Part shown: piece after piece, positions 1-44,624 of the stretch | Numbering within the stretch: the first letter of the stretch is position 1 | Layout: each line of letters starts with the position of its first letter | DNA from: a phage | Length of the DNA stretch: 45,069 nt | Sequence record: PZ334583.1 | Direction: 5' to 3' (one strand) | Notes under the pieces: model-generated | Database searches by the model: none | The model's input: the letters and a program-made list of their open reading frames with translations, nothing else | Told to the model about the DNA's origin: nothing | Program-made: the position numbers and the translations under genes

Positions 1-1899
1 ATGGCAAAGGCTAGAGAATCACAGGCAGAGGCATTAAAGCGGTGGGAAAACCTTAAAGAACTACAAGACACTTTTAAATATACAGCGGAAGGTTTGCTTC
101 TCTTTGCAGATACAGTTATCCATAACTTAATTGCAGGCAACCCTCATCTGATTCGTATGCAGGCTGATATCTTGAAGTTCCTATTTTACGGACACAAGTA
201 CCGCCTCATCGAAGCGCCTCGTGGTATCGCTAAGACAACACTATCAGCAATCTATACGGTATTCCGTATTATTCATGAACCGCATAAGCGTATTATGGTT
301 GTGTCCCAAAACGCCAAGCGAGCAGAGGAAATCGCAGGTTGGGTAGTTAAAATCTTCCGTGGCTTAGACTTTCTTGAGTTTATGCTGCCGGATATCTACG
401 CTGGGGACCGTGCATCCGTTAAGGCGTTTGAGATTCATTACACCCTACGTGGTAGTGATAAGTCTCCTTCTGTATCCTGTTACTCAATCGAAGCAGGTAT
501 GCAGGGTGCTCGTGCTGATATTATTCTAGCGGATGACGTAGAGTCGATGCAGAATGCTCGTACGGCAGCGGGCCGTGCCTTGCTTGAGGAGCTGACTAAG
601 GAGTTTGAATCTATCAACCAGTTTGGGGATATCATTTACCTTGGTACACCTCAGAACGTAAACTCTATCTACAACAACCTACCTGCTCGTGGTTACTCTG
701 TTCGTATCTGGACTGCGCGTTACCCTTCAGTAGAGCAAGAGCAATGTTATGGCGACTTCCTTGCACCTATGATTGTTCAAGATATGAAGGACAACCCAGC
801 ACTTCGCTCAGGGTACGGGTTGGATGGTAATAGTGGTGCACCTTGTGCCCCTGAAATGTATGATGATGAAGTCCTGATTGAGAAGGAAATCTCTCAGGGT
901 GCTGCTAAGTTCCAGCTTCAGTTCATGCTTAACACTCGCATGATGGATGCTGACAGATACCCATTACGCCTGAACAATCTAATCTTCACCTCGTTTGGTA
1001 CAGAGGAAGTCCCTGTGATGCCTACGTGGAGTAATGATTCCATAAACATCATTGGTGATGCACCTAAGTATGGTAACAAGCCTACGGATTTCATGTACAG
1101 ACCTGTAGCTCGCCCATATGAATGGGGTGCTGTCTCCCGCAAGATTATGTATATCGACCCTGCGGGTGGTGGTAAGAACGGAGATGAGACGGGTGTAGCC
1201 ATCGTATTCCTGCACGGCACATTCATTTATGTGTATCAGTGCTTTGGTGTACCTGGCGGATACCGAGAGTCGTCCCTGAATCGCATTGTGCAGGCCGCAA
1301 AGCAGGCGGGTGTTAAAGAGGTATTCATTGAGAAGAACTTTGGTCATGGCGCGTTTGAGGCGGTAATTAAGCCGTACTTTGAACGAGAGTGGCCTGTAAC
1401 TCTGGAAGAGGATTACGCCACCGGACAGAAAGAGTTGCGTATCATTGAGACGCTGGAGCCGCTCATGGCAGCACATAGGCTTATCTTCAATGCAGAGATG
1501 GTGAAGTCAGACTTTGAGTCGGTACAGCACTATCCGCTTGAACTACGCATGTCCTACAGTCTTTTCAATCAAATGTCGAACATAACGATTGAGAAGAACA
1601 GCCTCCGGCACGATGACCGCCTAGACGCCCTGTATGGCGCTATACGGCAATTAACTTCTCAGATAGACTATGACGAGGTTACACGGATTAATCGCCTCAG
1701 AGCGCAGGAGATGCGAGATTACATCCATGCTATGAACACACCTCATCTACGCAGGGCAATGCTATATGGGGATTACGGTACTGAGCGAAGAGTGACCAAC
1801 ACTTCCGTAGCGATGCAGCAGCGAGTTTACGGGCAGAACTACCGAAATAAATCGGCAAGCAGAAATACACTTTCTGCAAGGATTTCAAGGACTTATTAA
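1..1899 (+). CDS. terL: Terminase large subunit (T7 gp19-like); its ATG and first 14 nt are also present at 45056..45069
   Basis: 632-aa ORF; N-terminal sequence recognised as T7-group large terminase; position upstream of the tailspike genes as in SP6/K1-5-type genomes; RBS AAGGAG at 45042..45047. Confidence 0.93.
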   Translation: MAKARESQAEALKRWENLKELQDTFKYTAEGLLLFADTVIHNLIAGNPHLIRMQADILKFLFYGHKYRLIEAPRGIAKTTLSAIYTVFRIIHEPHKRIMVVSQNAKRAEEIAGWVVKIFRGLDFLEFMLPDIYAGDRASVKAFEIHYTLRGSDKSPSVSCYSIEAGMQGARADIILADDVESMQNARTAAGRALLEELTKEFESINQFGDIIYLGTPQNVNSIYNNLPARGYSVRIWTARYPSVEQEQCYGDFLAPMIVQDMKDNPALRSGYGLDGNSGAPCAPEMYDDEVLIEKEISQGAAKFQLQFMLNTRMMDADRYPLRLNNLIFTSFGTEEVPVMPTWSNDSINIIGDAPKYGNKPTDFMYRPVARPYEWGAVSRKIMYIDPAGGGKNGDETGVAIVFLHGTFIYVYQCFGVPGGYRESSLNRIVQAAKQAGVKEVFIEKNFGHGAFEAVIKPYFEREWPVTLEEDYATGQKELRIIETLEPLMAAHRLIFNAEMVKSDFESVQHYPLELRMSYSLFNQMSNITIEKNSLRHDDRLDALYGAIRQLTSQIDYDEVTRINRLRAQEMRDYIHAMNTPHLRRAMLYGDYGTERRVTNTSVAMQQRVYGQNYRNKSASRNTLSARISRTY

Positions 1900-1920
1900 T
1901 TACTGGACACTATAGAAGGA
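1898..1920 (+). promoter_or_regulatory. Phage RNAP promoter (SP6-like), putative +1 G at 1915
   Basis: aattactggacactatagaagga; matches the 13-copy consensus ATTTACYGGACACTATAGAAG; overlaps the terL stop. Confidence 0.8.
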
Positions 1921-2055
1921 AGGCCCAGATAATAAGATAAATAATAGGTAATATATAGGTTAACCTAGGTTATATAGGTATGCCTTAATATGGGTGTACT
2001 CCTGTACACCCTCTTCTTTACTACCTTACTATATTTACATAATAGGAGAGAGACA

Positions 2056-2337
2056 ATGGCTAATGATTATAGTAGTCAACCATTAACAGGTAAGTCTAAG
2101 AGAAAGCAGGTACAACCTGTAAGTGAAGAACTAATGCTTCCGGTAATCAAAAAAGAGGAAGCTAGTAAGAAAAGCAATGTCATTAATGATGCCACCAAAT
2201 CAGGTAAACAGAAAGGGGCCATGGTGTGCCTTGAAGTGGAAGGTGGTGTATTGGAGATTGCTATCGCGGTTGATGGCAAAGAAGATTCAGAGTGGAAGTT
2301 AGTAACAGTGGAACCAGCTGTTATTAAACCAGTTTAA
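2056..2337 (+). CDS. Hypothetical late protein, paralog A of a tandem pair
   Basis: ATG 2056 with RBS AGGAG 2044..2048; shares the motif SGKQKGAMVxLE...IAxA...W with the next ORF. Confidence 0.6.
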   Translation: MANDYSSQPLTGKSKRKQVQPVSEELMLPVIKKEEASKKSNVINDATKSGKQKGAMVCLEVEGGVLEIAIAVDGKEDSEWKLVTVEPAVIKPV

Positions 2338-2355
2338 GATAAGGAGGAAGATTAC

Positions 2356-2649
2356 ATGGCTAAATATGGTACTACAGGTTCTGTTACTGGTCAGGCTTTT
2401 CGAGTAAAAGCAGTACAAACTATTGCAACGGCAATTCCTATGCCTGTTGTTAAGGAAGTAGACCTTAAGAAGAAAGACCACCCTATCAACATCAAACACT
2501 TATCAGGTAAACAGAAAGGTGCAATGGTTGCTCTTGAGAAAACTGACACAACCATGCATATTGCTGTTGCACGTGGCAGTGAACCCACAGACCCATGGGA
2601 TGTAACTGGTATGGAAGGTGACGCTGTTACTCCGGCAGGTGGAGAATAA
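2356..2649 (+). CDS. Hypothetical late protein, paralog B of a tandem pair
   Basis: ATG 2356 preceded by AAGGAGGAAG; contains LSGKQKGAMVALE, paralogous to 2056..2337. Confidence 0.65.
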   Translation: MAKYGTTGSVTGQAFRVKAVQTIATAIPMPVVKEVDLKKKDHPINIKHLSGKQKGAMVALEKTDTTMHIAVARGSEPTDPWDVTGMEGDAVTPAGGE

Positions 2650-2993: not shown

Positions 2994-3101
2994 GATGCAT
3001 TGAATGGTGTGAGCGCATGGTTGCTAAGGCTTCAGAGGAAGGTAATTATGAAGATTGGCAGAACTACTCAACTTTATTAGCACAATGGAAAGGGAGGTGC
3101 A

Positions 3102-3538: not shown

Positions 3539-3567
3539 TACATAGCTTTATGTATCAGTGTCTTACG

Positions 3568-3590
3568 ATTTACTGGACACTATAGAAGAG
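3568..3590 (+). promoter_or_regulatory. Phage RNAP promoter, putative +1 G at 3585
   Basis: gatttactggacactatagaagag, perfect consensus, upstream of tailspike 1. Confidence 0.85.
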
Positions 3591-3669
3591 ATAAGATAGC
3601 GCCGTTCTTTTGAGCGGCCTATTACTAGCCAATCTTCATAGGGAGGGTTGGAAAGTAATAGGAGATAGT

Positions 3670-5568
3670 ATGGCTAAATTAACCAAACCTAATACTGAAG
3701 GAATCTTGCATAAAGGACAATCTTTGTATGAGTACCTTGATGCGAGAGTTTTAACATCAAAGCCGTTTGGTGCTGCAGGTGACGCCACTACTGATGATAC
3801 GGAGGTTATAGCTGCTTCATTAAACTCTCAGAAAGCTGTCACAGTCTCAGATGGTGTATTCTCTAGCTCTGGTATTAATAGTAATTACTGTAACTTAGAC
3901 GGTAGGGGTAGTGGCGTGCTAAGTCACCGTTCCAGTACAGGTAACTACTTAGTATTTAACAATCTACGTGCAGGTCGCTTAAGTAATATTACGGTAGAAA
4001 GTAATAAGGCGACTGATACAACTCAGGGACAGCAGGTATCTCTTGCTGGTGGAAGTGATGTTACTATAAGTGACGTTAACTTCTCAAACGTTAAAGGTAC
4101 TGGTTTCAGTTTAATAGCATGCCCTAATGGTGAGCAACCTAACGGGCTTATGATTAAAGGCATTCGAGGTAGCTACTCCGGCTATGCTACTAATAAGGCC
4201 GCTGGATGCGTACTTGCTGACTCCTCAGTTAACTCTCTCATAGATAACGTCATTGCTAAGAGCTATCCTCAGTTTGGAGCTGTAGAGCTGAAAGGTACAG
4301 CCAGTTATAACATAGTAAGTAATGTTATAGGGGCAGATTGCCAACATGTAACTTACAACGGCACTGAAGAGGTAATAGCTCCTTCTAATAACCTTATCAA
4401 GGGTGTGATGGCTAATAATCCTAAGTATGCAGCGGTTGTTGCAGGCAAAGGAAGTACGAACTTAATCTCAGACGTGCTCGTAGATTACTCAACTTCTGAT
4501 GCTAGGCAGGCTCATGGTGTTACCGTAGAAGGGTCTGATAACGTCATAAATAATGTTCTTATGTCAGGATGTGATGGTACTAACTCTTTAGGACAAAGGC
4601 AGACTGCTACAATTGCACGCTTTATAGGTACAGCTAATAACAACTATGCGTCTGTATTTCCTAGCTACAGTGCTACAGGTGTTATTACTTTCGAATCCGG
4701 CTCTACCCGTAACTTCGTAGAGGTAAAGCACCCTGGCAGGAGAAATGACCTTCTCAGTTCTGCTAGTACTATTGACGGTGAAGCTACTATTGACGGCACT
4801 AATAATAGTAACGTAGTGCACGCACCCGCCTTAGGGCAGTACATAGGTAGTATGTCAGGTAGGTTCGAATGGCGGATTAAGTCCATGTCACTACCTTCAG
4901 GCGTTCTTACTTCGGCTGATAAGTACAGAATGCTTGGGGATGGTGCTGTGTCATTCGCTGTAGGTGGGGGCACTTCTTCTCAAGTTCGCCTATTTACTTC
5001 TGATGGTACTTCTCGGACAGTGTCCCTCACCAACGGTAACGTGCGTCTTTCTACCAGTAGCACAGGATATTTGCAGTTAGGTTCTGATGCAATGACCCCA
5101 GATAGTACTGGTACATACGCATTAGGTTCCGCCAGTAGAGCATGGTCTGGCGGTTTTACTCAATCAGCATTCACTGTTGTCTCAGATGCTAGGGATAAAA
5201 CAGAGCCCCTTATTATCTCAGATGCTTTACTGGATGCTTGGTCTGAAGTTGACTTTGTGCAGTTTCAGTACTTGGACCGAATTGAGGAGAAGGGTGCAGA
5301 CTCAGCTAGATGGCACTTCGGTATCATCGCTCAGCGAGCTAAGGAGGCTTTCGAACGTCACGGTATAGATGCACACCGCTACGGCTTCTTGTGCTTCGAC
5401 AGTTGGGATGATGTATACGAGGAAGATGCCAATGGCTCTCGTAAACTGATTACACCAGCAGGTTCCCGCTACGGTATTCGTTACGAGGAAGTACTGATAT
5501 TAGAGGCTGCATTGATGCGACGGACTATTAAGCGTATGCAGGAAGCACTAGCTGCCATTCCTAAGTAA
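3670..5568 (+). CDS. Tailspike 1: beta-helix capsule depolymerase-like with C-terminal intramolecular chaperone (peptidase S74) domain
   Basis: ATG 3670 (MAKLTKPNTEG...) with RBS GGAG; Ser/Thr/Gly/Asn-rich repetitive body typical of a beta-helix; C-terminus VSDARDKTEP...WHFGIIAQ...GIRYEEV matches the auto-cleaving chaperone domain of endosialidase and K5-lyase tailspikes. Confidence 0.9.
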   Translation: MAKLTKPNTEGILHKGQSLYEYLDARVLTSKPFGAAGDATTDDTEVIAASLNSQKAVTVSDGVFSSSGINSNYCNLDGRGSGVLSHRSSTGNYLVFNNLRAGRLSNITVESNKATDTTQGQQVSLAGGSDVTISDVNFSNVKGTGFSLIACPNGEQPNGLMIKGIRGSYSGYATNKAAGCVLADSSVNSLIDNVIAKSYPQFGAVELKGTASYNIVSNVIGADCQHVTYNGTEEVIAPSNNLIKGVMANNPKYAAVVAGKGSTNLISDVLVDYSTSDARQAHGVTVEGSDNVINNVLMSGCDGTNSLGQRQTATIARFIGTANNNYASVFPSYSATGVITFESGSTRNFVEVKHPGRRNDLLSSASTIDGEATIDGTNNSNVVHAPALGQYIGSMSGRFEWRIKSMSLPSGVLTSADKYRMLGDGAVSFAVGGGTSSQVRLFTSDGTSRTVSLTNGNVRLSTSSTGYLQLGSDAMTPDSTGTYALGSASRAWSGGFTQSAFTVVSDARDKTEPLIISDALLDAWSEVDFVQFQYLDRIEEKGADSARWHFGIIAQRAKEAFERHGIDAHRYGFLCFDSWDDVYEEDANGSRKLITPAGSRYGIRYEEVLILEAALMRRTIKRMQEALAAIPK

Positions 5569-8319: not shown

Positions 8320-8920
8320 TTAGTGGTGGACAAGGTGATTGCCTTAGTGAAGCCTCTTAGTGCATTCCTGAGGCCATTCAGGGCGTTTATGAGGTATTGA
8401 CAAGATGGAGGGGGGCGTGGGCTATCTGTTCGTTTCGTTCACTCCGCTTGCGCTACGTTCACTCGCTCACGTGTACCTTAGGCTATTCCTTTATGGATAG
8501 CTTAGGTTATAGCTTAGTGGCCTACCTTAGTTATAACCTTAGTGCATAGCTTAGTATCAGCTTAGTAGTGTACCTTAGTAAGTCTTAGTGTCTTCTCTTA
8601 GTGATTGCACATGCAAGCATGTAAGATGCCATTAGGTCGCGGTCGGTAGACCGCTAAAGAAGGAGAATAGTAATAAGATGCAGTAGGAGGAACACCAGAA
8701 GCCTAGCCAACCTAAGCTATCCTAGCTCTATATCTATTGCTTTTCCTTAGTCTAACACGTTAGACAACCTATCTTTTTCTTAGTGATGGTAACTTAGTGT
8801 TGACAAGATAATCTTAGTGTAATACTATGCATCACGTAGGCGGTGCTGAGGCACCTAGTAGCCAGCTAGTAAGGCATACGAAGAGACTAGCGCTTACATT
8901 GCTCTTTAACAATTTGCTTA
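8320..8920. repeat. Left-flank array of about 20 dispersed CTTAGTG / AGCTTAGT heptamer repeats (SRL-like), interspersed with host-type promoters
   Basis: ggcttagtgg, gccttagtga, cctcttagtg, tagcttaggttatagcttagtggcctaccttagttataaccttagtgcatagcttagtatcagcttagtagtgtaccttagtaagtcttagtgtcttctcttagtg, and further copies at 8780..8920. Confidence 0.7.
8800..8828 (+). promoter_or_regulatory. Candidate host sigma70 early promoter
   Basis: TTGACA (8800..8805), 17-nt spacer, TACTAT (8823..8828); sits in the early leader as the T7 A promoters do. Confidence 0.4.
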
Positions 8921-10124: not shown

Positions 10125-10238
10125 ATGGAAAAGTTATACAACTTTATCTTTTCAGACGGTGTAACCCTGAAGTGTTCCCTACGACTCGCACAAATTCGTG
10201 AGGAAGTACTAGGCACTACATACAAACTATTTAGCTGA
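10125..10238 (+). CDS. Small early ORF (37 aa)
   Basis: ATG 10125 directly after the ocr stop, RBS GAGGAAG; MEKLYNFIFSDGVTLKCSLRLAQIREEVLGTTYKLFS. Confidence 0.35.
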   Translation: MEKLYNFIFSDGVTLKCSLRLAQIREEVLGTTYKLFS

Positions 10239-10251
10239 CACTATAAGAGAA
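10229..10251 (+). promoter_or_regulatory. Variant phage promoter-like sequence (the +1 G is replaced by A)
   Basis: atttagctgacactataagagaa; the -17..-1 region is closer to the SP6 consensus than the main family, but the CTATAG initiation box reads CTATAA. Confidence 0.35.
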
Positions 10252-10542: not shown

Positions 10543-10605
10543 CTAGCCTATAGCCTACCTGAGTGGGCTATGTGATATTTACTTACACTATATAAGGTGA
10601 CTATT

Positions 10606-11553: not shown

Positions 11554-14181
11554 ATGCAAGACCTACACGCTATTCAACTTCAACTTGAAGAAGAAATGTT
11601 TAACGGCGGTATCCGTCGCTTTGAAGCGGACCAACAACGCCAGATTGCATCCGGTAATGAATCAGACACGGCATGGAATCGCCGCTTATTATCCGAGTTA
11701 ATCGCGCCAATGGCTGAAGGTATTCAGGCTTATAAGGAAGAGTACGAAGGCAAGCGCGGTCGTGCACCACGTGCATTGGCTTTCATTAACTGCGTAGAAA
11801 ATGAAGTGGCAGCGTATATCACGATGAAGATCGTAATGGATATGCTTAACACTGATGTAACCTTGCAAGCTATCGCTATGAATGTAGCTGACCGCATCGA
11901 AGACCAAGTGCGCTTCAGTAAACTAGAAGGCCATGCAGCTAAATATTTTGAGAAGGTCAAGAAGTCACTTAAGGCAAGTAAGACTAAATCATATCGCCAT
12001 GCGCACAACGTAGCGGTCGTGGCTGAGAAGTCAGTAGCTGACCGTGACGCTGATTTCTCTCGCTGGGAAGCGTGGCCTAAAGATACCTTGCTACAAATTG
12101 GTATGACCTTGCTAGAAATACTGGAAAATAGTGTATTCTTCAACAGGCAGCCTGTTTTCATCCGCACCTTGCGTACTAATGGCGGCAAACACGGTGTTTA
12201 CTACTTACAGACTAGTGAACACGTTGGCGAGTGGATAACCGCCTTCAAAGAGCACGTAGCGCAACTAAGCCCTGCATATGCACCTTGCGTTATTCCTCCG
12301 CGTCCGTGGGTTTCACCTTTCAACGGTGGGTTTCATACTGAGAAAGTAGCAAGTCGTATCCGCCTTGTTAAAGGCAACCGTGAGCACGTCCGTAAGTTAA
12401 CTAAAAAGCAAATGCCAGCGGTCTATAAGGCTGTTAACGCCTTACAAGCTACTAAGTGGCAGGTTAACAAGGAAGTATTGCAGGTAGTAGAAGATGTTAT
12501 TCGTCTAGACCTCGGTTATGGTGTACCTTCCTTTAAGCCGCTCATTGACCGCGAGAACAAACCAGCTAACCCTGTTCCTCTTGAGTTCCAACACCTGCGA
12601 GGCCGTGAACTGAAAGAAATGCTTACGCCGGAACAATGGCAAGCCTTTATCAACTGGAAAGGTGAATGTACTAAGCTGTACACCGCTGAAACTAAGCGCG
12701 GAAGCAAATCGGCGGCAACCGTTCGCATGGTTGGTCAGGCCCGTAAATATAGCCAGTTCGACGCAATCTACTTCGTGTATGCACTGGACAGCCGCAGCCG
12801 CGTCTACGCGCAATCTAGCACACTCTCACCGCAATCAAATGACTTGGGCAAGGCATTGCTCCGTTTTACCGAAGGGCAGCGTCTTGATAGCGCTGAGGCG
12901 CTTAAGTGGTTTTTGGTGAACGGGGCGAATAACTGGGGTTGGGATAAGAAAACTTTTGACGTGCGCACCGCTAACGTGCTGGATAGCGAATTTCAAGACA
13001 TGTGCCGCGACATTGCAGCCGATCCGCTGACCTTCACTCAATGGGTAAATGCTGATTCCCCTTACGGCTTCCTTGCATGGTGCTTTGAATATGCGCGTTA
13101 TCTGGATGCACTGGATGAAGGCACGCAAGACCAATTCATGACGCACCTACCCGTCCATCAAGACGGTAGTTGCTCTGGTATCCAGCACTATAGCGCGATG
13201 TTACGCGATGAAGTAGGTGCGAAAGCAGTAAACCTTAAGCCTTCTGACTCCCCTCAAGATATTTATGGCGCGGTTGCGCAGGTTGTTATCCAGAAGAATT
13301 ACGCCTACATGAATGCAGACGATGCAGAGACTTTCACATCTGGAAGCGTCACACTTACAGGTGCAGAACTGCGTAGCATGGCTAGTGCGTGGGATATGAT
13401 AGGAATCACTCGCGGCCTGACCAAAAAGCCCGTAATGACACTACCTTATGGCAGCACACGTCTAACCTGCCGTGAGTCAGTGATTGATTATATCGTTGAT
13501 TTAGAAGAAAAAGAGGCCCAACGGGCTATTGCGGAAGGGCGTACCGCCAATCCTGTACACCCTTTTGATAATGACCGTAAGGACAGCCTGACACCTAGCG
13601 CAGCTTATAACTATATGACAGCTTTAATCTGGCCTTCTATTTCGGAAGTGGTTAAAGCTCCTATAGTGGCAATGAAAATGATTCGTCAGCTTGCACGTTT
13701 CGCAGCTAAAAGGAATGAAGGCTTAGAGTACACCTTGCCTACTGGCTTCATCTTGCAACAAAAGATAATGGCGACAGATATGCTCCGCGTATCTACTTGC
13801 TTGATGGGCGAAATCAAGATGAGTCTACAGATTGAAACGGACGTAGTGGATGAAACGGCTATGATGGGCGCTGCTGCCCCTAACTTTGTGCACGGTCATG
13901 ATGCCAGTCACCTTATCTTAACGGTCTGCGACCTTGTTGATAAAGGGATTACATCTATCGCAGTAATTCATGATTCTTTTGGCACTCATGCAGGTCGTAC
14001 CGCAGACCTACGTGATAGTCTAAGGGCAGAAATGGTGAAGATGTATCAAGGCCATAACGCTCTGCAAAGCCTGTTAGATGAGCATGAAGAACGCTGGTTA
14101 GTAGACACCGGAATCCAAGTGCCAGAGCAAGGAGAGTTTGACCTTAACGAAATCTTAGTATCTGACTATTGCTTCGCATAA
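11554..14181 (+). CDS. Single-subunit DNA-dependent RNA polymerase (SP6/T7 family)
   Basis: 875 aa; [26 protein letters not shown]... and the catalytic C-terminus ...HDSFGTHA... recognised as SP6-type RNAP; RBS AGGAG. Confidence 0.97.
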
Positions 14182-14189
14182 TATTAATA

Positions 14190-14221
14190 GGCCATTCCTT
14201 CGGGAGTGGCCTTTTCTTTTT
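14190..14221 (+). terminator. Strong intrinsic terminator after the RNAP gene (early terminator analogue)
   Basis: ggccattcc-ttcg-ggagtggcc (UUCG tetraloop hairpin) followed by ttttcttttt. Confidence 0.8.
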
Positions 14222-14255
14222 ACCTACTACCGGTAACATTTCATTAACATAAAAT

Positions 14256-14271
14256 GTCTCACATGTGAGAC
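14256..14271. repeat. 16-bp perfect palindrome GTCTCACATGTGAGAC, copy 1, abutting promoter 14274
   Basis: exact sequence read; six copies in the genome. Confidence 0.9.
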
Positions 14272-14273
14272 TT

Positions 14274-14296
14274 ATTTACCGGACACTATAGGATAG
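14274..14296 (+). promoter_or_regulatory. Phage RNAP promoter (origin-associated; ATAGGATAG downstream variant)
   Basis: atttaccggacactataggatag. Confidence 0.7.
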
Positions 14297-14299
14297 CCG

Positions 14300-14430
14300 T
14301 CGGAGACGGGAAAGAAAGGGAAGATAAAGGATATAAAGGAAGTAATAGGTATTAAAGGTTATATAGGTTATCTAGGAATACCTATTACCTTCTTCCTTCC
14401 TCTTATTACTACTTAGAGGAAGGGCAGATC
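14300..14430. other. AT-rich, strand-asymmetric imperfect inverted repeat; candidate primary replication origin core
   Basis: purine-rich arm ggaaagaaagggaagataaaggatataaaggaagtaataggta..., pyrimidine-rich arm ...tacctattaccttcttccttcctcttatt; flanked by two palindrome-plus-promoter units; same position as the T7 primary origin. Confidence 0.4.
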
Positions 14431-14436
14431 TATGTT

Positions 14437-14452
14437 GTCTCACATGTGAGAC
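14437..14452. repeat. Palindrome GTCTCACATGTGAGAC, copy 2
   Basis: exact sequence read. Confidence 0.9.
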
Positions 14453-14457
14453 TTCGT

Positions 14458-14480
14458 ATTTACCGGACAGTATAGATAAG
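14458..14480 (+). promoter_or_regulatory. Degenerate phage promoter (ACAGTATAGATAAG)
   Basis: atttaccggacagtatagataag; C to G change in the core, may be weak or inactive. Confidence 0.4.
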
Positions 14481-16626: not shown

Positions 16627-17089
16627 GGCAGCAGGCTATACCATCAAGGAAGATGGTACTATCCTTAACCCTAAAGGTGTAATACGCAAGCCCACGCCTT
16701 TAGGAAAGAAAGTAAAGTATTTATATGTAACTTGGAGACATCAAGGTCGAACAGTGACAGAACTTGTACACCGACTGGTTGCTTGTAAGTACATACCCAA
16801 CCCACAGGGTTTACCAGAAGTTCATCATAAAGACTTTAATCCTCTTAATTGTCATAAGGATAATCTTGAATGGACAGATGGGAAAACCAATTGTGAGTAT
16901 AGCTATTCACGAGTAGAGACTGCACTTGCACGAAAGGCTACTTTGCTGTCACCTGATGGAATTAAACATGATGTGTTTAATGTTCGTAAGTTCTGCCGTA
17001 AACATAGCCTCAATCCACCTAGCATATTTGAAGTGCTCAGTGGTAAGCGTAAATCACACAAAGGTTGGGCTATTTACCGGACACTATAG
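16601..17089 (+). CDS. HNH homing-type endonuclease, paralog 1
   Basis: motifs VHHKDFNPLNCHKDNLEW (HNH), paralogous to 44626..45069; strong RBS AAGGAGG 16589..16595; start codon uncertain (TTG 16601 or 16613; ORF-track frame begins at 16583); 3' end contains promoter 17072. Confidence 0.75.
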   Translation: MLTKLKSFEAAGYTIKEDGTILNPKGVIRKPTPLGKKVKYLYVTWRHQGRTVTELVHRLVACKYIPNPQGLPEVHHKDFNPLNCHKDNLEWTDGKTNCEYSYSRVETALARKATLLSPDGIKHDVFNVRKFCRKHSLNPPSIFEVLSGKRKSHKGWAIYRTL

Positions 17090-17094
17090 AAGAG
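17072..17094 (+). promoter_or_regulatory. Phage RNAP promoter embedded in the 3' end of the HNH gene
   Basis: atttaccggacactatagaagag. Confidence 0.8.
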
Positions 17095-17145
17095 ACTAAC
17101 TTCGATGAAGAAAGTGAGTTCTGATTAGTGTATTTATCAGGGCTT

Positions 17146-17161
17146 GTCTCACATGTGAGAC
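17146..17161. repeat. Palindrome GTCTCACATGTGAGAC, copy 3 (extended stem cttgtctcacatgtgagacagg)
   Basis: exact sequence read; 30-bp context nearly identical to the copy at 39815. Confidence 0.9.
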
Positions 17162-17200: not shown

Positions 17201-17884
17201 ATGTATAAATTAGTATTGAATGTAGGTGATTATGTTCGTAACATCAATGAAGCCTCACGTCGTTATCGTTGCCGTGGTGTAGTGGATCGTGTAAGTGAGA
17301 ACATGTATCATGTAGAATATGAGGATGGTATTAAGGCTTCTTACCACAAGAAAACAGCACATAAATATCTTGAAAAGGTTGTAGAGATAAACAATCAATG
17401 TAAGTGCATACATGATGAGCTTTGCGATAAGTGTGCTCGCCAGATGCATAAGATGCTATTATACCCTTTTCGCTATTGTGCTGGCCCTCAAACACTAGCA
17501 GAGTACATGGCAGAAAAGAAAACCACACTCAAGAAAGAGCGTCGCAATGTAATCACTGGTAAGACTCAAAGTGAGATGATTAAGCAATGTGGCACTGCAC
17601 TAGGTGTTACGCAGTTTAACACTCGTGCTCTTGGTAAATCCACAGGACAAGCTATGGTAAAGATCGGCGAAGCCATGATGCATCCAAATGTACCTGTACG
17701 AATCAGGGATGTTGACCATGCAATCACAGAACACGGTACGCAACGACGTGTAATTAATAAGCATTTTGCCGACACTATAGAAGGTATTATTCGTAAGCAA
17801 GGGTTGAAAGGTCTTCATATCTTGAATGATGAAGAGTTACTGTACCTCCCTATTGTTACTGAAGAAACCTACGTGAATATCTAA
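17201..17884 (+). CDS. Hypothetical protein (227 aa), Cys-containing N-terminal region
   Basis: ATG 17201 with RBS GGAG; contains internal promoter-like sequence at 17762. Confidence 0.7.
   Translation: MYKLVLNVGDYVRNINEASRRYRCRGVVDRVSENMYHVEYEDGIKASYHKKTAHKYLEKVVEINNQCKCIHDELCDKCARQMHKMLLYPFRYCAGPQTLAEYMAEKKTTLKKERRNVITGKTQSEMIKQCGTALGVTQFNTRALGKSTGQAMVKIGEAMMHPNVPVRIRDVDHAITEHGTQRRVINKHFADTIEGIIRKQGLKGLHILNDEELLYLPIVTEETYVNI
17762..17784 (+). promoter_or_regulatory. Intragenic variant phage promoter-like sequence
   Basis: attttgccgacactatagaaggt; core GACACTATAGAAG intact, upstream specificity region diverged. Confidence 0.4.
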
Positions 17885-21464: not shown

Positions 21465-21487
21465 ATTTACTGGACACTATAGAAGGA
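21465..21487 (+). promoter_or_regulatory. Phage RNAP promoter followed by an AT-rich TAGGT-repeat leader
   Basis: atttactggacactatagaagga; downstream ctaggtttataaggtagtataggtaattaag. Confidence 0.85.
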
Positions 21488-21551: not shown

Positions 21552-21929
21552 ATGTCTATGGTAACTACTCTGGTATTTGTAGCTCAATACTTTCGTGGTC
21601 TGGCTAATAAGTTCAAGTCCAAGGCTATCAAAGCTATTGAGTCTCGCATCGAGGCAGTACAGGCAGAGCAGGTTAAAGTTGAAGAACATCGTAGTTCTAA
21701 AATGATTGACTGCCATAACCGCTACTATGCATCTCGTGATGACCTTAATGCACGCCAAGTCAAAGAGGTTGAAGAGATGCTGGCACGTCACCAGCAAGAG
21801 CGCGACAGTCTGAAAGCTGAATTTGAAGAGAACAAGGCATCCATCGCCCTTGTACATCAAGCCGCATCTGACAGCCTGAAGAAAGAGATTGTTATGCTGG
21901 AAATTGAGTTAGACAACCTGACCAAATAA
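21552..21929 (+). CDS. Hypothetical coiled-coil protein (125 aa)
   Basis: RBS AGGAG; heptad-like charged helical sequence. Confidence 0.65.
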   Translation: MSMVTTLVFVAQYFRGLANKFKSKAIKAIESRIEAVQAEQVKVEEHRSSKMIDCHNRYYASRDDLNARQVKEVEEMLARHQQERDSLKAEFEENKASIALVHQAASDSLKKEIVMLEIELDNLTK

Positions 21930-21950
21930 TTACTGGACACTATAGAACAA
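21928..21950 (+). promoter_or_regulatory. Phage RNAP promoter
   Basis: aattactggacactatagaacaa; overlaps the stop of the upstream gene. Confidence 0.8.
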
Positions 21951-23127: not shown

Positions 23128-23143
23128 GTCTCACATGTGAGAC
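23128..23143. repeat. Palindrome GTCTCACATGTGAGAC, copy 5, 15 nt upstream of promoter 23159
   Basis: exact sequence read. Confidence 0.9.
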
Positions 23144-23158
23144 AAATCGGTGTCCGGT

Positions 23159-23181
23159 ATTTACTGGACACTATAGAAGAG
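23159..23181 (+). promoter_or_regulatory. Phage RNAP promoter
   Basis: atttactggacactatagaagag, perfect consensus. Confidence 0.85.
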
Positions 23182-25305: not shown

Positions 25306-26305
25306 GCTTCGCAGCTTGTACAAAGACTCCGAGGTACTTGATGCAATCGAGCAAGCTACCGACGAGAAAGGTAATGTTAATTACAATGAGATGGCACGTG
25401 TATTATCGTGTCACCCTGTGGGTAAGAAGATTACCCGCCAGTTGGCTCGATACTGGCACGGTCAATTCAAGAAGACCAAGAAGAATGGTGATTATTACCA
25501 GACCCTTCTGCAAGAAGATAAGCGTATCAAAGAAGAGCGTAAGCTCAGGACTCCTGACCGCTACGAGGATTTGGCTATTGTACCATTGCCTGACTCGCCT
25601 CATCGAAGTGTACTGGTAATCCCTGATACTCATGCACCTTATGAGCATCCAGATACCTTAGAGTTCCTTGCAGCAGTCGCGGCACGTTACCGTCCAGATA
25701 CAGTGGTTCACTTAGGAGATGAGGCAGATAAACACGCCCTCTCCTTCCATGACTCTGACCCGAATCTGGATAGCGCTGGCATGGAGCTAGAGAAGGCTCG
25801 TGTCTTCATGCACAAGTTGCACAAGATGTTCCCTGTGATGCGCCTGTGTCATTCTAATCACGGCTCTATGCACTTCCGTAAGGCAAGCGCCAAGGGTATT
25901 CCAGTGCAATATCTTCGCACCTACCGTGAAGTTTTCTTCCCAAATGGAGGTGGCGACCAGTGGGATTGGCAGCATACACATGTTCTTGAGTTGCCGAATG
26001 GCGAACAAGTGGCATTCAAGCATCAACCTGCTGGCTCTGTCCTAGCAGATGCAGCGCATGAGCGTATGAACCTTGTGTGTGGTCACTTGCACGGTAAGAT
26101 GTCTGTGGAGTACGCACGTAATACACATGAACAGTATTGGGCTGTGCAAGGTGGCTGCTTAATTGATGAGTCATCCCGTGCATTTGCCTATGGGCGTGAG
26201 TCTAAATACAAGCCAGCATTAGGTTGTGTGGTTATTCTGGAGGGTGTACCTCATATTGTCCCGATGCAAACCAATAGCGACAACCGTTGGATTGGCAAGA
26301 TTTAG
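25298..26305 (+). CDS. Calcineurin-like metallophosphoesterase
   Basis: motifs VIPDTHAPY, HLGDEADKH, CHSNHG, GHLHG; start taken as TTG 25298 after RBS AAGGAGG (alternative ATG 25391). Confidence 0.75.
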   Translation: MGKLRSLYKDSEVLDAIEQATDEKGNVNYNEMARVLSCHPVGKKITRQLARYWHGQFKKTKKNGDYYQTLLQEDKRIKEERKLRTPDRYEDLAIVPLPDSPHRSVLVIPDTHAPYEHPDTLEFLAAVAARYRPDTVVHLGDEADKHALSFHDSDPNLDSAGMELEKARVFMHKLHKMFPVMRLCHSNHGSMHFRKASAKGIPVQYLRTYREVFFPNGGGDQWDWQHTHVLELPNGEQVAFKHQPAGSVLADAAHERMNLVCGHLHGKMSVEYARNTHEQYWAVQGGCLIDESSRAFAYGRESKYKPALGCVVILEGVPHIVPMQTNSDNRWIGKI

Positions 26306-26322
26306 TTGACACTATAGAACAA
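26300..26322 (+). promoter_or_regulatory. Phage RNAP promoter (AGTTG variant, closest to the SP6 consensus)
   Basis: atttagttgacactatagaacaa; overlaps the phosphoesterase stop. Confidence 0.75.
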
Positions 26323-31631: not shown

Positions 31632-31654
31632 ATTTACTGGACACTATAGAAGGG
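31632..31654 (+). promoter_or_regulatory. Phage RNAP promoter for the capsid gene, with 5' leader hairpin
   Basis: atttactggacactatagaaggg followed by gggagaa-aag-ttctccc. Confidence 0.88.
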
Positions 31655-32920: not shown

Positions 32921-32957
32921 GCCCTATCTACCTTGCGTAGGTAGGGTTATTTTTTGT
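32921..32957 (+). terminator. Terminator after the capsid gene (T-phi analogue)
   Basis: gccctatctacc-ttgcg-taggtagggtt imperfect hairpin followed by attttttg. Confidence 0.65.
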
Positions 32958-36854: not shown

Positions 36855-39802
36855 TGGCAATTGAGCGACAAGCAGTACAAGGTCTGCCACAAGTGCAGGC
36901 CACTTCTCCTAATGTCATGACCTTTGCACCTCAGCGAGTTGGAGGTGTGGAGGCTGGCGTAGCTTCTACCTCCGGTAGTCGATTTATCGAAGACCTTATT
37001 CGAGCAGCCAGTAGTGTAGCTGATGTAACCACTGGTATCCTTAATCAAAAGATTGAGGAAGATAAGGTTGTTCAAATGGAACGGGCATATAACGGATTAA
37101 TGCCTTCTGAGGATGCAACTCGTGGTGGCGCTCGTGCTAACATGCTTGTCAAAGCTCAACTGCTAGCTAATGATGAAGCAGCACGAATGAAAGACATGGC
37201 TACTCGTTTCCAAGGAACGGATGACGAGTGGACACAACTTATGGTTGACTCTCGTAATGAGATGCAGAATAAGCTGTTCCAGCAATACCCTGAGTTGCAA
37301 GGTGACAAAGATACTATGCGTATGGTCACTAATGTCTTCCAAGAACAGCAGCCTCAGATTTGGGCGACACGAACCCAGCATAAACTTGACCGTGAACAAG
37401 CAGACCGTGAGGATACCTTTGACGGGCGAGTGGCTTCTACTTGGGATTCTAATATTGACCCTGAAGCATCTGGCTATGCTTTACAGGAACGAATCCGCGA
37501 AGGTCTTACTCAAGGATTACTACCTGAACAGATGCACAAGAAGTTAGTCCAGCGAGCAATTTCACTTGCACAAGGCGGTGATGTTAGCATGGCTGAAGCC
37601 CTGAAGTATGTGAAGGACGATAAGGGTGTTTCTGTTTATGCTAAGAATCCACAGCTTATCACAGCCATCACTAGTGGTAATGCAGTTTGGGCTAGGAATA
37701 ATGTAGCTGATGTAACTCGTATGTCTTTCGAAGTTAAAGAATCCTACCTTGCAGGTGATTTAACTGATGAAGAATTGTTGGAACGAGCACAGCACATTAA
37801 TAATCTGACAGGTAACTCTGTCTTCTCTAATCCAGAGCTAGAGGCACTGATGCGCCAACGGGCTAAGCAGAATGCAGAGCTAGGTGCAATGCAGGATATG
37901 CGACGTGAGCTTTACTCCGACCGCCTGACTGGCTTCCAAGGTAAGACTGATAAAGAGAAGAAGGCTTACATTGATGTTATCAAACAGGATAGCCAACTTT
38001 ATGCAGACCAGCAAATCAAACAACGTGGCTTGGACCCTTACAGTCAAGAGGCTGAAGCTATTCGTGGTGCAGTGGAAGTGCAGCGCCTGCAATTCATGAA
38101 CTCCAAAGGCTTAGTGGATGATACCTTTGAGTCTCGTATCAAAGCCATGGAATCTATGCTATCGCCTGAGCACTTTGCCAAGGGCGAACCACAGGAGTTG
38201 ATGACTATTCGCCAGTTGTGGGAACAGTTGCCAGAAGAGAGCCGAGGTGTCTTTGGTGACACGGTGAATGGCTACATGGATAACTACAACACTGCACTAC
38301 AAATGGGAGAGACACCTTTGCAGGCTGCAAGGTTTGCGCGTGAAGCACAGCAGAAATTCTCTCGTACTGAGAAGGAAACCAAGAAGTTCAACTCAGCTAT
38401 TGGAGATGCACTGGATGAGGTATCTGGTGCTGGCTGGTTTGATGGTAAAACCGAAGTGTCAGACTTAGGTAAAGCTATTGCGGAAGAAGAGTTACGAGCT
38501 AAGGCCAATATGTTGTGGTCTAGTGGTATGCGTAACATGGATTCTATCAAGAAGGCTTTAATTACTTGGGGCAATAAACGCTACACTCAAACAGAGGATG
38601 CAAAGACTTCCGGTGGCTATTTCATTAAAGGTGATTACACTTCTGCATCTGATATGCTTATGTCAGTTGGGAAAGGCGTAAACCCTACCGATGTACCTCT
38701 GGCGCTTGGTAGGTATGTAGAAACACAGATGCCAGAATTGAAGAAGGAGCTTCAAGAGTGGGAAACTAAAGATGATATATACATTGATTACAATGAACAG
38801 AAAGGTACTTTCGTGATTCGTGCTGGTGCAGCAGGTCGCCCTCTTTCTGGAGTAATCCCTGTAACCTCTTTAGATACCACTTCACTACTAGATTCTGCCT
38901 ATCAGAAGAAAGTAGAGGAACGAGATAAAGGCGAGTATGTTCACCCTTATCGTACAGATATTGGTGCACAAGAGCCTATGCCAGCTAAACCCACTGCCAA
39001 AGATATTGGTAAATTTGGACTAGCTAACTTCCTCATGTCTTCTGCTTTTGCTTCTGGTGAGAATCTGCCTTCTAACTTCGAGATTAACTATCGAGGTAAT
39101 ATGCAACAATTCTATGACAAGCTAGCTATGGATGAGAATAAAGATAAAGTTGGCTTTAATAAGGCAACTGGAACCTTTACTCCATATAAAGATGCTCACG
39201 GTGAGTCTATCGGTTACGGTCATTTCTTAACGGAAGAAGAGAAGAGAAACGGGTATATTAAGATTGGTGATGAACTAGTTCCCTATCGAGGGTCTATGTC
39301 TCAGCTTACAGAGAGCAAGGCTCGCGCTCTTATGGAGCAAGATGCCAAGAAGCATGTGCCTCCTACTCGTGACTGGAAGATTCCGTTTGACCAGATGCAT
39401 CCTGCACAGCAACGTGGTTTGATGGATTTAACCTACAATTTAGGTAAAGGTGGAATCCAGAACTCACCGCGTGCTCTTGCTGCATTCAAAGCTGGTAAGC
39501 TTACGGAAGGCTTTATCGAAATGCTGGGCACTGCATCAAGTGAAGGTAAACGTATTCCGGGCCTACTGAAGCGACGCGCTGAGGCATACAATATGGCAGC
39601 TGCTGGTGGTGTACCTAAGATCACAGAAGTGGAGACGAGGGAAGATGGCTCTATGTGGGTTAAGTTTGGTGGACCTATGCCAGCAGGCTCTGTTTCTGCG
39701 TGGACGCATAAACGTATTGGAGCCGATGGCTGGTATCAGGTTTATGAGGCTGCACCTACCAAGTTAGCTAAAGACTCTAAGGTAGGTAAAGTTAAATTGT
39801 AG
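36854..39802 (+). CDS. Internal virion protein B (gp15-like) with C-terminal lysozyme-like peptidoglycan hydrolase domain
   Basis: 982 aa; C-terminal region ...GESIGYGHFLTEEE...QQRGLMDLTYNLGKGG...GKRIPGLLKRRAEAYNMA resembles phage lysozyme-type muramidases. Confidence 0.8.
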   Translation: MAIERQAVQGLPQVQATSPNVMTFAPQRVGGVEAGVASTSGSRFIEDLIRAASSVADVTTGILNQKIEEDKVVQMERAYNGLMPSEDATRGGARANMLVKAQLLANDEAARMKDMATRFQGTDDEWTQLMVDSRNEMQNKLFQQYPELQGDKDTMRMVTNVFQEQQPQIWATRTQHKLDREQADREDTFDGRVASTWDSNIDPEASGYALQERIREGLTQGLLPEQMHKKLVQRAISLAQGGDVSMAEALKYVKDDKGVSVYAKNPQLITAITSGNAVWARNNVADVTRMSFEVKESYLAGDLTDEELLERAQHINNLTGNSVFSNPELEALMRQRAKQNAELGAMQDMRRELYSDRLTGFQGKTDKEKKAYIDVIKQDSQLYADQQIKQRGLDPYSQEAEAIRGAVEVQRLQFMNSKGLVDDTFESRIKAMESMLSPEHFAKGEPQELMTIRQLWEQLPEESRGVFGDTVNGYMDNYNTALQMGETPLQAARFAREAQQKFSRTEKETKKFNSAIGDALDEVSGAGWFDGKTEVSDLGKAIAEEELRAKANMLWSSGMRNMDSIKKALITWGNKRYTQTEDAKTSGGYFIKGDYTSASDMLMSVGKGVNPTDVPLALGRYVETQMPELKKELQEWETKDDIYIDYNEQKGTFVIRAGAAGRPLSGVIPVTSLDTTSLLDSAYQKKVEERDKGEYVHPYRTDIGAQEPMPAKPTAKDIGKFGLANFLMSSAFASGENLPSNFEINYRGNMQQFYDKLAMDENKDKVGFNKATGTFTPYKDAHGESIGYGHFLTEEEKRNGYIKIGDELVPYRGSMSQLTESKARALMEQDAKKHVPPTRDWKIPFDQMHPAQQRGLMDLTYNLGKGGIQNSPRALAAFKAGKLTEGFIEMLGTASSEGKRIPGLLKRRAEAYNMAAAGGVPKITEVETREDGSMWVKFGGPMPAGSVSAWTHKRIGADGWYQVYEAAPTKLAKDSKVGKVKL

Positions 39803-39819
39803 TACCTAACTCAAGGCTT

Positions 39820-39835
39820 GTCTCACATGTGAGAC
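39820..39835. repeat. Palindrome GTCTCACATGTGAGAC, copy 6, between internal virion protein genes
   Basis: exact sequence read; extended context ggcttgtctcacatgtgagacaggtctttat. Confidence 0.9.
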
Positions 39836-39866
39836 AGGTCTTTATGATAGGCACTATGGAGGAACT

Positions 39867-43175: not shown

Positions 43176-44137
43176 TGAGTTATACTTTCACAGAACATAT
43201 AGCCAACGGCACGCAAGTAACCTATCCCTTTAGCTTTGCTGGTAGGGATAAAGGTTATCTTCGTGCCTCAGATGTGATAGTGGAGTCTCTTCAAGGTAAC
43301 ACTTGGATTGAGGTTACATCTGGCTGGCAACTAACTGGCACGCACCAGATTACTTTTGATGTAGCACCAGTTGCAGGTTTGAAGTTCCGTATTAGAAGGG
43401 AAGTACAAAAGGAGTATCCATACGCTGAGTTTGACCGTGGTGTTACCTTGGATATGAAGTCTTTAAATGGTTCTTTCATTCATATACTGGAGATTACACA
43501 GGAGTTACTTGACGGGTTTTATCCAGAAGGATACTTCATTAAACAGGATGTAAGCTGGGGCGGCAATAAGATTACTGATTTGGCTGATGGCACAAATCCG
43601 GGAGATGCAGTAAATAAAGGGCAGCTTGATGCCATCGACAAGAAGCATACAGATTGGAACGCCAAACAGGACATTGAGATTGCTGGCCTTAAGGCTGGTA
43701 TGACTTCTGGTATTGCGCACAGAACTGTTCCTTGGTACACGATAGCCCAAGGTGGTGAGATTTCCGTAAAACCACCTTATGAATTTCAAGATGCACTAGT
43801 TTTCCTTAATGGGGTGTTGCAGCACCAAATTGTAGGCGCATACTCTATAAGCAACAACACTATCACTTTCGCAGAGCCGCTTGTGGCGGGTACAGAGGTG
43901 TATGTGCTGATTGGTAGTCGTGTGGCTACATCTGAACCTAATATTCAGTTAGAGTTGAACTTTGACTTAGTAGAAGGCCAACAAGTAGTACAGATTGGCT
44001 CTGCATTTAAGTACATTGAGGTCTACCTTGATGGATTATTACAACCTAAACTTGCTTATCAGGTAGACGGTGACATTGTTACTTTCTCAGAGGGAGTGCC
44101 AGAATGCCGGATGACTGCTAAGATTATCACAGCATAA
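43175..44137 (+). CDS. Tail-fibre N-terminal-domain adaptor protein (gp17 N-domain-like) that docks the tailspikes
   Basis: 320 aa; N-terminal region resembles the T7 gp17 N-terminal domain (GDAVNKGQLD motif); no receptor-binding domain of its own. Confidence 0.8.
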   Translation: MSYTFTEHIANGTQVTYPFSFAGRDKGYLRASDVIVESLQGNTWIEVTSGWQLTGTHQITFDVAPVAGLKFRIRREVQKEYPYAEFDRGVTLDMKSLNGSFIHILEITQELLDGFYPEGYFIKQDVSWGGNKITDLADGTNPGDAVNKGQLDAIDKKHTDWNAKQDIEIAGLKAGMTSGIAHRTVPWYTIAQGGEISVKPPYEFQDALVFLNGVLQHQIVGAYSISNNTITFAEPLVAGTEVYVLIGSRVATSEPNIQLELNFDLVEGQQVVQIGSAFKYIEVYLDGLLQPKLAYQVDGDIVTFSEGVPECRMTAKIITA

Positions 44138-44146
44138 GGAGGTAGG

Positions 44147-44341
44147 ATGATTAACTCCGAACTGGTAGATAGTGGTGTGAAGCTTGCGCCACCTGCACTC
44201 GTATCAGGTGGGTACTTCCTCGGTATCAGTTGGGATAATTGGGTGTTAATAGCAACATTCATTTATACCGTGTTGCAAATTGGGGACTGGTTTTATAATA
44301 AGTTCAAGATTTGGAGGGAGAAGCGTGAGCGTACACAATAA
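44147..44341 (+). CDS. Holin, class II (T7 gp17.5-like)
   Basis: 64 aa; RBS AAGGAGG; FIYTVLQIGDWFYNKF corresponds to IAYTVVQIGAKVVDKM of T7 gp17.5; basic C-terminus. Confidence 0.8.
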   Translation: MINSELVDSGVKLAPPALVSGGYFLGISWDNWVLIATFIYTVLQIGDWFYNKFKIWREKRERTQ

Positions 44342-44624
44342 ACATGCAGCTACAGAGGATGAGGTTGGCATTCTGCATGGTGCTATTACCAAAATCTTCA
44401 ATAAGAAAGCACAGGCAATACTGGACACTATAGAAGAAGACCCTGATGCAGCATTACATTTAGTGCCTGGTAAGGACATTGGTGCAATGTGTAAGTGGGT
44501 TCTTGATAACGGCATTACCGCCACACCTGCTGCACAGCAGGAAGAGTCCAAGTTATCTAAGCGCCTCAAGGCTATCCGAGAGGCATCCAGTGGCAAGATT
44601 ATTCAGTTTACAAAAGAGGAGTGA
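44325..44624 (+). CDS. Putative terminase small subunit (gp18-like)
   Basis: about 99 aa from GTG 44325 (RBS GGAGGG 44313..44318); immediately upstream of terL as in T7; contains a promoter-like sequence. Confidence 0.5.
   Translation: MSVHNKHAATEDEVGILHGAITKIFNKKAQAILDTIEEDPDAALHLVPGKDIGAMCKWVLDNGITATPAAQQEESKLSKRLKAIREASSGKIIQFTKEE
44416..44438 (+). promoter_or_regulatory. Near-consensus phage promoter embedded in the small-terminase coding sequence
   Basis: caatactggacactatagaagaa; would drive the HNH gene and terL. Confidence 0.6.

Follow-up and report, generated by a model that had tools for sequence, protein, structure and literature searches.

The specificity of single-subunit phage RNA polymerases (RNAPs) has been traced to individual contacts: in T7 RNAP, Asn748 reads promoter positions -10 and -11, and the N748D substitution shifts T7 towards the T3 preference. 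Among relatives of phage SP6, several polymerases and their promoters have been described and put to use. K1E RNAP together with the promoter of the K1E capsid gene forms the core of the C3P3 expression system, for which the K1E, K1-5 and SP6 enzymes were compared (PMC6412113), and the same three RNAPs were compared for a vaccine platform (PMC12400119). The K1-5 RNAP and promoter have been used in Escherichia coli and in Chinese hamster ovary (CHO) cells, including libraries of tens of thousands of promoter variants, and in E. coli the K1-5 promoter responds specifically to K1-5 RNAP (PMC12231593). Genome mining has separated a 'K1E cluster' from an 'SP6 cluster' by residue and base, both of which deviate from T7-type rules (PMC11880802). 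Here we describe the promoters and the RNAP of a related phage, sequence record PZ334583.1, whose 45,069-nucleotide genome (called the window below, always at its full length) carries thirteen promoter copies of the SP6 group. These are very probably the middle and late promoters of a Vectrevirus, co-evolved with the phage RNAP at one promoter base, -11, and one residue, 747, and with a specificity that is shifted or relaxed rather than orthogonal to that of SP6.

The window is a Vectrevirus genome of the K1-5/K1E group, circularly permuted so that it begins at the terL start codon. A search with its first 25 kb gave alignments to the nearest database genomes that cover ~88% of the query and reach ~96% identity, and nucleotide identities of 90-96% to Vectrevirus records place it within that genus. 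When the K1E and K1-5 proteins were mapped onto the window, all K1-5 genes from gp1 to gp47 were collinear, and gene order is shared with both K1-5 (AY370674, 2004) and K1E (AM084415, 2006), which belong to the same genus.

An earlier sequence-only reading of the window had listed thirteen promoter copies. Searches were carried out with its consensus, ATTTAC(T/C)GGACACTATAGAAG, allowing at most three mismatches, with the SP6 consensus, and with the core GACACTATAG, allowing at most one mismatch. The first of these gave 12 matches on the plus strand, none on the minus strand and none in 100 dinucleotide-preserving shuffles of the window; the SP6 consensus added the site at 10229, and the core search recovered all 13 sites, so that every listed copy was found again. 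The strong copies number eight rather than the ten that had been counted: five match the consensus exactly, one has a single mismatch and two have two mismatches, and the other five are more degenerate, the rest of the consensus matches having three mismatches. Over -17 to +7 the information content of the 13 sites is ~33 bits. Eight of the ten positions in the core (-9 to +1) are invariant, the lone deviations falling at -5 and +1, and the upstream ATTTA is present in nine sites and one base off in three more. All of the sites lie on the plus strand at 31-215 nt from the next start codon, five of them (1898, 10229, 17072, 21928 and 26300) overlap the last codons of the upstream open reading frame (ORF), and only 10229, a degenerate copy, precedes the RNAP gene. 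The core, the cognate RNAP in the same genome, the strand and placement of the copies and the conservation of their positions are those of SP6-group (Molineuxvirinae) promoters. As judged from these sequence features, the thirteen sites are promoters of the phage RNAP, with initiation predicted at +1; an indirect line of evidence for such initiation is the published use of the K1E capsid, K1-5 and No. 2049 promoters with their own enzymes. The GenBank records of K1-5, K1E and SP6 carry no annotated promoter features.

Counterparts of all 13 sites are found in K1-5 and K1E at the same junctions and in the same order, with identical or near-identical sequence, and the same sites stand at the same junctions in five further Vectrevirus genomes. 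SP6 (genus Zindervirus) has promoters at 12 of the 13 junctions, including one inside gp10. The SP6 consensus that the sequence-only reading had given, ATTTAGGTGACACTATAGAAG, is correct and is found, for example, at SP6 22413; SP6 and window promoters share the -9 to +1 core and the upstream ATTTA. When the 12 window-SP6 pairs were compared position by position, differences were found at -12 in 11 pairs, at -11 in all 12 and at -10 in seven, with just two differences over -9 to -1 in the entire set and with the site-specific flanks kept. The segment from -12 to -10 had therefore been named correctly as the seat of the difference, but clean discrimination does not extend to all three positions. 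Both -12 and -10 overlap between the groups (GGT, GGG, AGG, CGT and AGT in SP6; CTG, CCG, GCT, GCC and GTT in the window), and -11 is the sole position that separates them cleanly, being G in SP6-type phages and T (eight sites) or C (five sites) in the window. No window site falls into the strict SP6 promoter class, the one recognised by SP6 RNAP, which is defined by the G at -11 that natural promoters of Arg-type phages invariably have.

The corresponding difference in the polymerase is equally narrow. The gp7 gene (11554..14181, plus strand) encodes a single-subunit RNAP of 875 aa that shares 99% identity with the RNAPs of K1E and K1-5, 86% with that of SP6 and 35% with that of T7. The specificity loop, residues 734-771 (codons at 13753..13866, plus strand), differs from the SP6 loop by one non-conservative change and six conservative ones. 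The comparison with SP6 and K1-5 that had been proposed as a check identifies the non-conservative change as Ser747 (codon 13792-13794), a residue that K1E and K1-5 also have; SP6 has Arg instead, and the aligned T7 residue is Asn748. The equivalents of Arg746, Lys756 and Ser758 are common to both loops. Furthermore, the AT-rich recognition loop region differs from that of SP6 only by Arg68Lys, which fits the unchanged ATTTA.

This pairing of base and residue extends beyond the window. The loop is identical in 8 of 8 Ser-type genomes, and G occupies -11 in every credible site of four Arg-type genomes (SP6, Kenya-K11, PST_H2 and Koku). Among 17 RNAP loci from IMG/VR, C or T is found at -11 in 60 of 62 sites of the Ser type and G in 33 of 33 sites of the Arg type. 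Proteus phage PM93 has Arg at the 747 position together with other loop changes, and has A at -11 and ACC at -9 to -7; therefore, no simple one-residue code holds across the subfamily.

These counts bear on the idea of a neutral history, in which -12 to -10 would be weakly read by both enzymes and the promoter flavours would be lineage markers unlinked to residue 747. Such a history would accommodate the variation of -12 and -10 inside each genome, and the departure of K1E and SP6 from T7-type recognition rules (PMC11880802) is in keeping with it. However, -11 has changed at 12 of 12 independent syntenic sites while -9 to -1 stayed near-invariant, a pattern that requires concerted selection, and a pyrimidine at -11 occurs in none of the 33 Arg-type IMG/VR sites and in no real site of the four Arg-type genomes despite module exchange between the two groups. 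We regard a neutral history as very improbable.

We favour instead a concerted co-evolution of promoter and polymerase. By analogy with T7 and SP6, host RNAP would transcribe the early region, including gp7, as far as the terminator at 14189; gp7 RNAP would then start at the G after the TATA of each promoter and proceed rightward across the genes for DNA metabolism, structural proteins, packaging and tailspikes. Following T7 structures, -17 to -13 (ATTTA) would be read by the AT-rich recognition loop and -12 to -5 by the specificity loop, with TATA as the melting region. Relative to SP6, each syntenic promoter has T or C instead of G at -11, mostly along with changes at -12 and -10, and the RNAP has gone from Arg to Ser at 747, the position that reads -10/-11 in T7. 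The Ser enzyme would most likely prefer a pyrimidine at -11 and still take an SP6-type G, and any exclusion would probably be one-way, with SP6-type Arg enzymes rejecting window-type promoters.

The exceptions to the -11 pattern are all one-directional: SP6-type GGT promoters that stand in genomes of the Ser type, together with an identical Ser747 loop. Three such sites are found in NTNC80A (14869, 20145 and 32196), one in NIC06P3 (4575) and one in L179; the NIC06P3 site is an exact SP6 consensus located 5' of a tailspike gene. Flanks of the GGT sites are closest to Arg-type phages in three of the four examined, NTNC80A 14869 being ambiguous, and those three sites were therefore acquired by recombination. 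To judge by such flanks, promoters travel with exchanged modules, including a tailspike cassette. The Ser747 enzyme probably accepts G at -11. For the Arg enzyme, the strict G at -11 of its genomes hints at a possible rejection of pyrimidines.

The sequence-only reading went further and predicted from the -12 to -10 change an RNAP of altered promoter specificity that could be useful as an orthogonal expression tool; on such a view the promoter and polymerase pair would be orthogonal to SP6 and a new tool. The case for this can draw on the complete partition of -11 between Arg-type and Ser-type phages at syntenic sites, on the location of S747 versus R at the T7 N748 position, and on the single N748D change that switches the -10/-11 preference in T7/T3. 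The GGT promoters in Ser-type genomes argue against it, as does an in vitro result for a Vectrevirus-type RNAP, whose activity on the SP6 promoter was no lower than on its own consensus (PMC13029058). With this enzyme, the purified metagenomic RNAP No. 2049 (native promoter TATTTACTGGACACTATAG, working derivative TATTTACTGGACACTATAGGAGGA), the SP6 promoter yielded 3.5% of the T7 signal and the enzyme's own consensus ~2% (PMC13029058). The contig from which No. 2049 derives shares 91.8% identity with Vectrevirus NTNC80A, whose RNAP is 97.9% identical to the window RNAP and has the same loop. Equal use of the SP6 promoter, which had been named beforehand as the outcome that would speak against altered specificity, is thus seen in one direction with an enzyme of the Vectrevirus type. 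Additionally, the pair is not new, the K1E and K1-5 pairs being tools already. Altered specificity does have a matching loop change; the evidence favours a shifted or relaxed preference over an exclusive one, and we consider orthogonality to SP6 improbable. A literature search with the promoter string returned only PMC13029058.

Several points weigh against co-evolution with a shifted or relaxed specificity, and should be considered together. The promoter status of the individual window sites is a prediction, and three of them may be weak or silent: 10229 with its A at +1, 14458 with its G at -5, and 44416, whose -17 to -13 part is poor. The residue-to-base assignment comes from an alignment to T7 at 35% identity; the PDB holds no SP6-type RNAP structure, T7 RNAP structures being the sole close solved relatives, and for this reason we infer the contact between residue 747 and its base. 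The signals of No. 2049 were low and the initially transcribed sequences differed between templates (PMC13029058), and that enzyme is tied to Vectrevirus through contig identity, not loop sequence. Ser-type genomes might have imported their GGT promoters recently and make little use of them. Finally, our literature searches found no report in which SP6 RNAP was tried on CTG or CCG promoters.

Individual sites differ in how well they fit a promoter role, beginning with those near the RNAP gene (promoter spans below run from -17 to +6 and, like the terminators, are on the plus strand). The degenerate early-region copy at 10229..10251, ATTTAGCTGACACTATAAGAG, overlaps the end of gp4 and lies 5' of gp5, gp6 and the RNAP gene; its function is uncertain, and every one of its counterparts (K1-5 2014, K1E 2779, SP6 2104) shares its A at +1. 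A decayed fourteenth promoter-like copy, TATTTACTTACACTATATAAGG, is located at 10576..10599 on the plus strand, 5' of gp6 and with a hairpin ahead of it (10549-10572). It has T at +1 and is one base shorter than the full-length version at K1-5 2323, ATTTACTTAACACTATATAAGG. Two promoter-like sites, 10229 and 10576, therefore stand upstream of the RNAP gene. In the early region, sigma-70-like and terminator-like signals were no more numerous than expected by chance, and mention is therefore limited to individual strong sites. One of these is an intrinsic terminator directly after the RNAP gene (14189..14222), with a 10-bp stem that includes six GC pairs, followed by a T-run; it is likely the end of the early unit transcribed by host RNAP.

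The first promoter past the RNAP gene, ATTTACCGGACACTATAGGATAG, is at 14274..14296 (counterparts K1-5 6020, K1E 6824, SP6 6118). The second of the twins, at 14458..14480, has G at -5 and a GATAAG start and lies 31 nt 5' of gp8 (counterparts K1-5 6204, K1E 7008, SP6 6287). Between the twin promoters (14291-14457) lies a 146-nt spacer rich in purines and AT, a layout like that of the T7 primary replication origin with phi1.1A and phi1.1B.

A perfect 16-bp palindrome, GTCTCACATGTGAGAC, is found in five exact copies (14256-14271, 14437-14452, 17146-17161, 23128-23143 and 39820-39835) and two near copies (15237 and 18290), versus 0.01 expected. The copies are intergenic and their positions are conserved in other Vectrevirus genomes. 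Three of them end 2, 5 and 15 nt before the promoters at 14274, 14458 and 23159, respectively, and those at 17146 and 39820 form the tips of long hairpins, the 17146 hairpin having a z-score of -7.3. Candidate roles for the palindrome are an RNA processing or stabilising hairpin, or a protein-binding site.

Features of this kind raise the alternative that several of the 13 copies are not mainly promoters, with 14274/14458 serving as a replication origin, 10229 and 10576 being relics, and the copy in terS having a packaging role. The twin promoters directly after the RNAP gene, each behind the same 16-bp palindrome and separated by the purine-rich 146-nt spacer, are consistent with an origin; the A at +1 of 10229 in every genome and the base lost from 10576 would suit relics, and literature searches found no data on the use of these copies. 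The likeness to T7 (the phi1.1A/1.1B origin, and phiOR for the terS copy) is nevertheless drawn by inference, and T7 origin promoters are also real promoters; thus an origin at 14274/14458 would add to a promoter role and not replace it. We hold this alternative to be possible, if on balance unlikely, and return to the thirteen sites as phage promoters.

The promoter 5' of gp10 (17072..17094) is an exact consensus copy in a non-coding remnant of the helicase C-terminal tail. Its counterparts in K1-5 (8320) and K1E (9342) lie within the helicase gene, in the part that encodes the acidic C-terminal tail. In the window, an HNH-like ORF (16583-17089) is inserted 3' of the helicase gene and supplies a new acidic C-terminal helicase tail, and the former tail-coding sequence (17050-17130) persists downstream as non-coding DNA with the promoter within it. 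The HNH cassette has thereby shifted this promoter out of coding sequence, in contrast to K1-5 and K1E, and the stop codon of the HNH-like ORF falls inside the promoter.

Two copies had been reported as intragenic, and both do lie inside genes, in gp10 and in terS (gp39); the first begins at 17763 instead of 17762. The gp10 copy, ATTTTGCCGACACTATAGAAGG (17763..17785), is 115 nt 5' of gp10.5 and is kept inside SP6 gp10 (9112) in an identical reading frame. The terS copy, CAATACTGGACACTATAGAAGAA (44416..44438), has a weak -17 to -13 part and is present in Vectrevirus genomes; SP6 lacks it and has codons for A-A-V in place of D-T-I, so that the promoter copy required a change from Ala-Ala-Val to Asp-Thr-Ile. 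All promoters inside genes (17763, 44416 and K1-5 8320-8342) share the frame GAC-ACT-ATA-GAA, which encodes Asp-Thr-Ile-Glu.

The remaining promoters all have counterparts in SP6. An exact consensus copy at 21465..21487 lies 5' of gp15 (counterparts K1-5 12580, K1E 13925, SP6 12542), and the promoter at 21928..21950, over the gp15 stop codon and 5' of gp16, differs from SP6 13005 only at -12 to -10. Another exact copy, 23159..23181, stands 5' of gp18 and differs from SP6 14286 only at -12 and -11. Directly upstream is an inverted partial copy of its own -12 to -4 segment (23146-23172; GTGTCCGGT versus ACTGGACAC), which as RNA or single-stranded DNA would give a 10-bp hairpin with the promoter. 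At 26300..26322 a variant with GTT at -12 to -10 overlaps the end of gp22, 5' of gp23, and again departs from its SP6 counterpart (17428) only at -12 and -11. The major capsid gene is preceded at 56 nt by an exact consensus copy (31632..31654) whose leader opens with a hairpin and which is unlike SP6 22413 only at -12 to -10; the gene is followed by a terminator-like hairpin and T-run (32921..32957), a position analogous to that of T7 T-phi. Across the permuted end of the record, AATTACTGGACACTATAGAAGGA (1898..1920) overlaps the terL stop codon and is predicted to drive gp41-gp45 (counterparts K1-5 37593, K1E 40033, SP6 37773), and an exact consensus copy at 3568..3590 lies 85 nt 5' of gp46, the tailspike gene for K5 lyase (counterparts K1-5 39265, K1E 41717, SP6 39910).

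The window phage differs from K1-5 and K1E in its HNH cassette, an HNH gene between terS and terL, and its second tailspike, with no effect on the promoters. The terS-terL interval holds an HNH endonuclease ORF (44479-45069; Pfam HNH_3, E = 4e-11), unlike that of K1-5, which has no HNH gene there. The first tailspike gene (3670-5568) encodes a K5 lyase that is 96% identical to K1-5 gp46. The second (5654-7837) encodes a 727-aa protein that combines a pectate-lyase-like domain with an S74 chaperone domain at its C-terminus, and stands where K1-5 carries its K1 endosialidase; the host range of the window phage is therefore probably different from that of K1-5.

The same promoter also occurs outside this group of phages. 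A scan of IMG/VR returned Vectrevirus contigs and, in addition, ~65 single exact matches in prophage-like contigs from bacterial genomes whose flanks are all alike (for example L018:3905-4160 in an IMG/VR prophage contig). These matches belong to a cassette, also seen at L123:7001-7386 in the E. coli M217 chromosome, in an HK97-type lambdoid prophage. The lysis genes and iss/bor flank it at one end, and HNH, terS and terL at the other; it is oriented toward iss/bor and runs antisense to the late genes of the prophage. Of 5,426 complete E. coli genomes, at least 601 contain 80% or more of a 386-nt cassette query, the cassette being unannotated there, and a diverged copy is present on the minus strand of Shigella phage SfIV (record 39006-39260). 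A scan of GTDB species representatives found no cassette, no link was found to sitABCD or to the sit island for which a 2006 paper by Chen and Schneider (see below) is cited, and Rfam families were absent from both the cassette and the window.

Along the cassette, a T7-group promoter and a hairpin come first, followed by an SP6-group promoter with a leader hairpin, and then by a strong ribosome-binding site and a 40-codon ORF, with TAAGGAGGT between the leader hairpin and the ORF. The T7-group promoter, CAATAC(A/G)ACTCACT(A/G)ATGG(G)AGA, is of the "TAAT" type native to Kvp1, Yep-phi and Berlin-like phages. The 13-bp hairpin shows compensatory variants, one of which has the arms of the Vectrevirus palindrome. 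The SP6-group promoter equals the window consensus over 23 nt. Its flavours at -12 to -10 are CTG (65 copies), CTT (7) and GGT (6) in IMG/VR, with GGG elsewhere, and correspond to the alternatives by which Vectrevirus and SP6-type phages differ. In 29 cassette haplotypes all three positions at -12 to -10 are variable, as compared with one of 13 at -9 to +4 and none of five at -17 to -13; changes at -8, -3 or -2 occur in some further copies that do not belong to this set. The 40-codon ORF is open in 79 of 79 copies and is rarely called as a gene. Searches of its product against Pfam, PHROGs, NCBIfam and PADLOC gave no match, and SP6-like genomes showed no homologue. In its C-terminal half, which is conserved, the ORF overlaps the C-terminus of the SfIV-type Rz1 spanin in antisense, and the conservation of that half was therefore not counted as evidence for a gene. 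An origin of the cassette as a relic of a larger recombination with an SP6-like phage was rejected, as only ~25 nt match and a T7-type promoter adjoins.

The cassette suggests a further explanation for the variation at -12 to -10, in which this triplet and residue 747 would have been shaped by an arms race with prophage cassettes that use the RNAP of an invading phage as an infection sensor. A sensed RNAP would trigger abortive infection, exclusion or iss/bor induction, and the changes from Arg to Ser and from G to a pyrimidine at -11 would represent phage escape, later followed by the cassettes. We consider such an arms race unlikely. Should infecting phages transcribe the cassette with their polymerases, it would amount to a natural infection sensor. 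Literature searches for cassette strings or for prophage genes triggered by a phage RNAP returned nothing relevant. Tandem T7-like promoter regions in enterobacterial genomes are reportedly the subject of a 2006 paper by Chen and Schneider (Nucleic Acids Res 34:1133), and are probably regions of this kind; the cassette compares with them in having tandem T7-group and SP6-group promoters in E. coli and Shigella prophages. The cassette is thus a lead to be checked against prior work and not a discovery.

Set against the known systems, the promoters and polymerase of the window phage, as well as their use as tools, are already known. Our finding recovers the promoters of a phage group whose sequencing dates from 2004-2006 and whose polymerase and promoter already serve cytoplasmic expression and synthetic-biology libraries, and the suggestion of a new orthogonal expression tool is overtaken by the K1E and K1-5 pairs. 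What the comparison contributes is to narrow the probable specificity pair of SP6-type polymerases to a single base, at -11, and a single residue, 747 (Ser or Arg), with a predicted asymmetry in which the Ser enzyme would be permissive and the Arg enzyme strict. The change between SP6 and the window falls at the same loop position and the same promoter positions as the Asn748 switch between T7 and T3. The two cases differ in their residues, which are Asn/Asp in T7/T3 and Arg/Ser here, and in outcome, since the Ser enzyme looks tolerant rather than exclusive.

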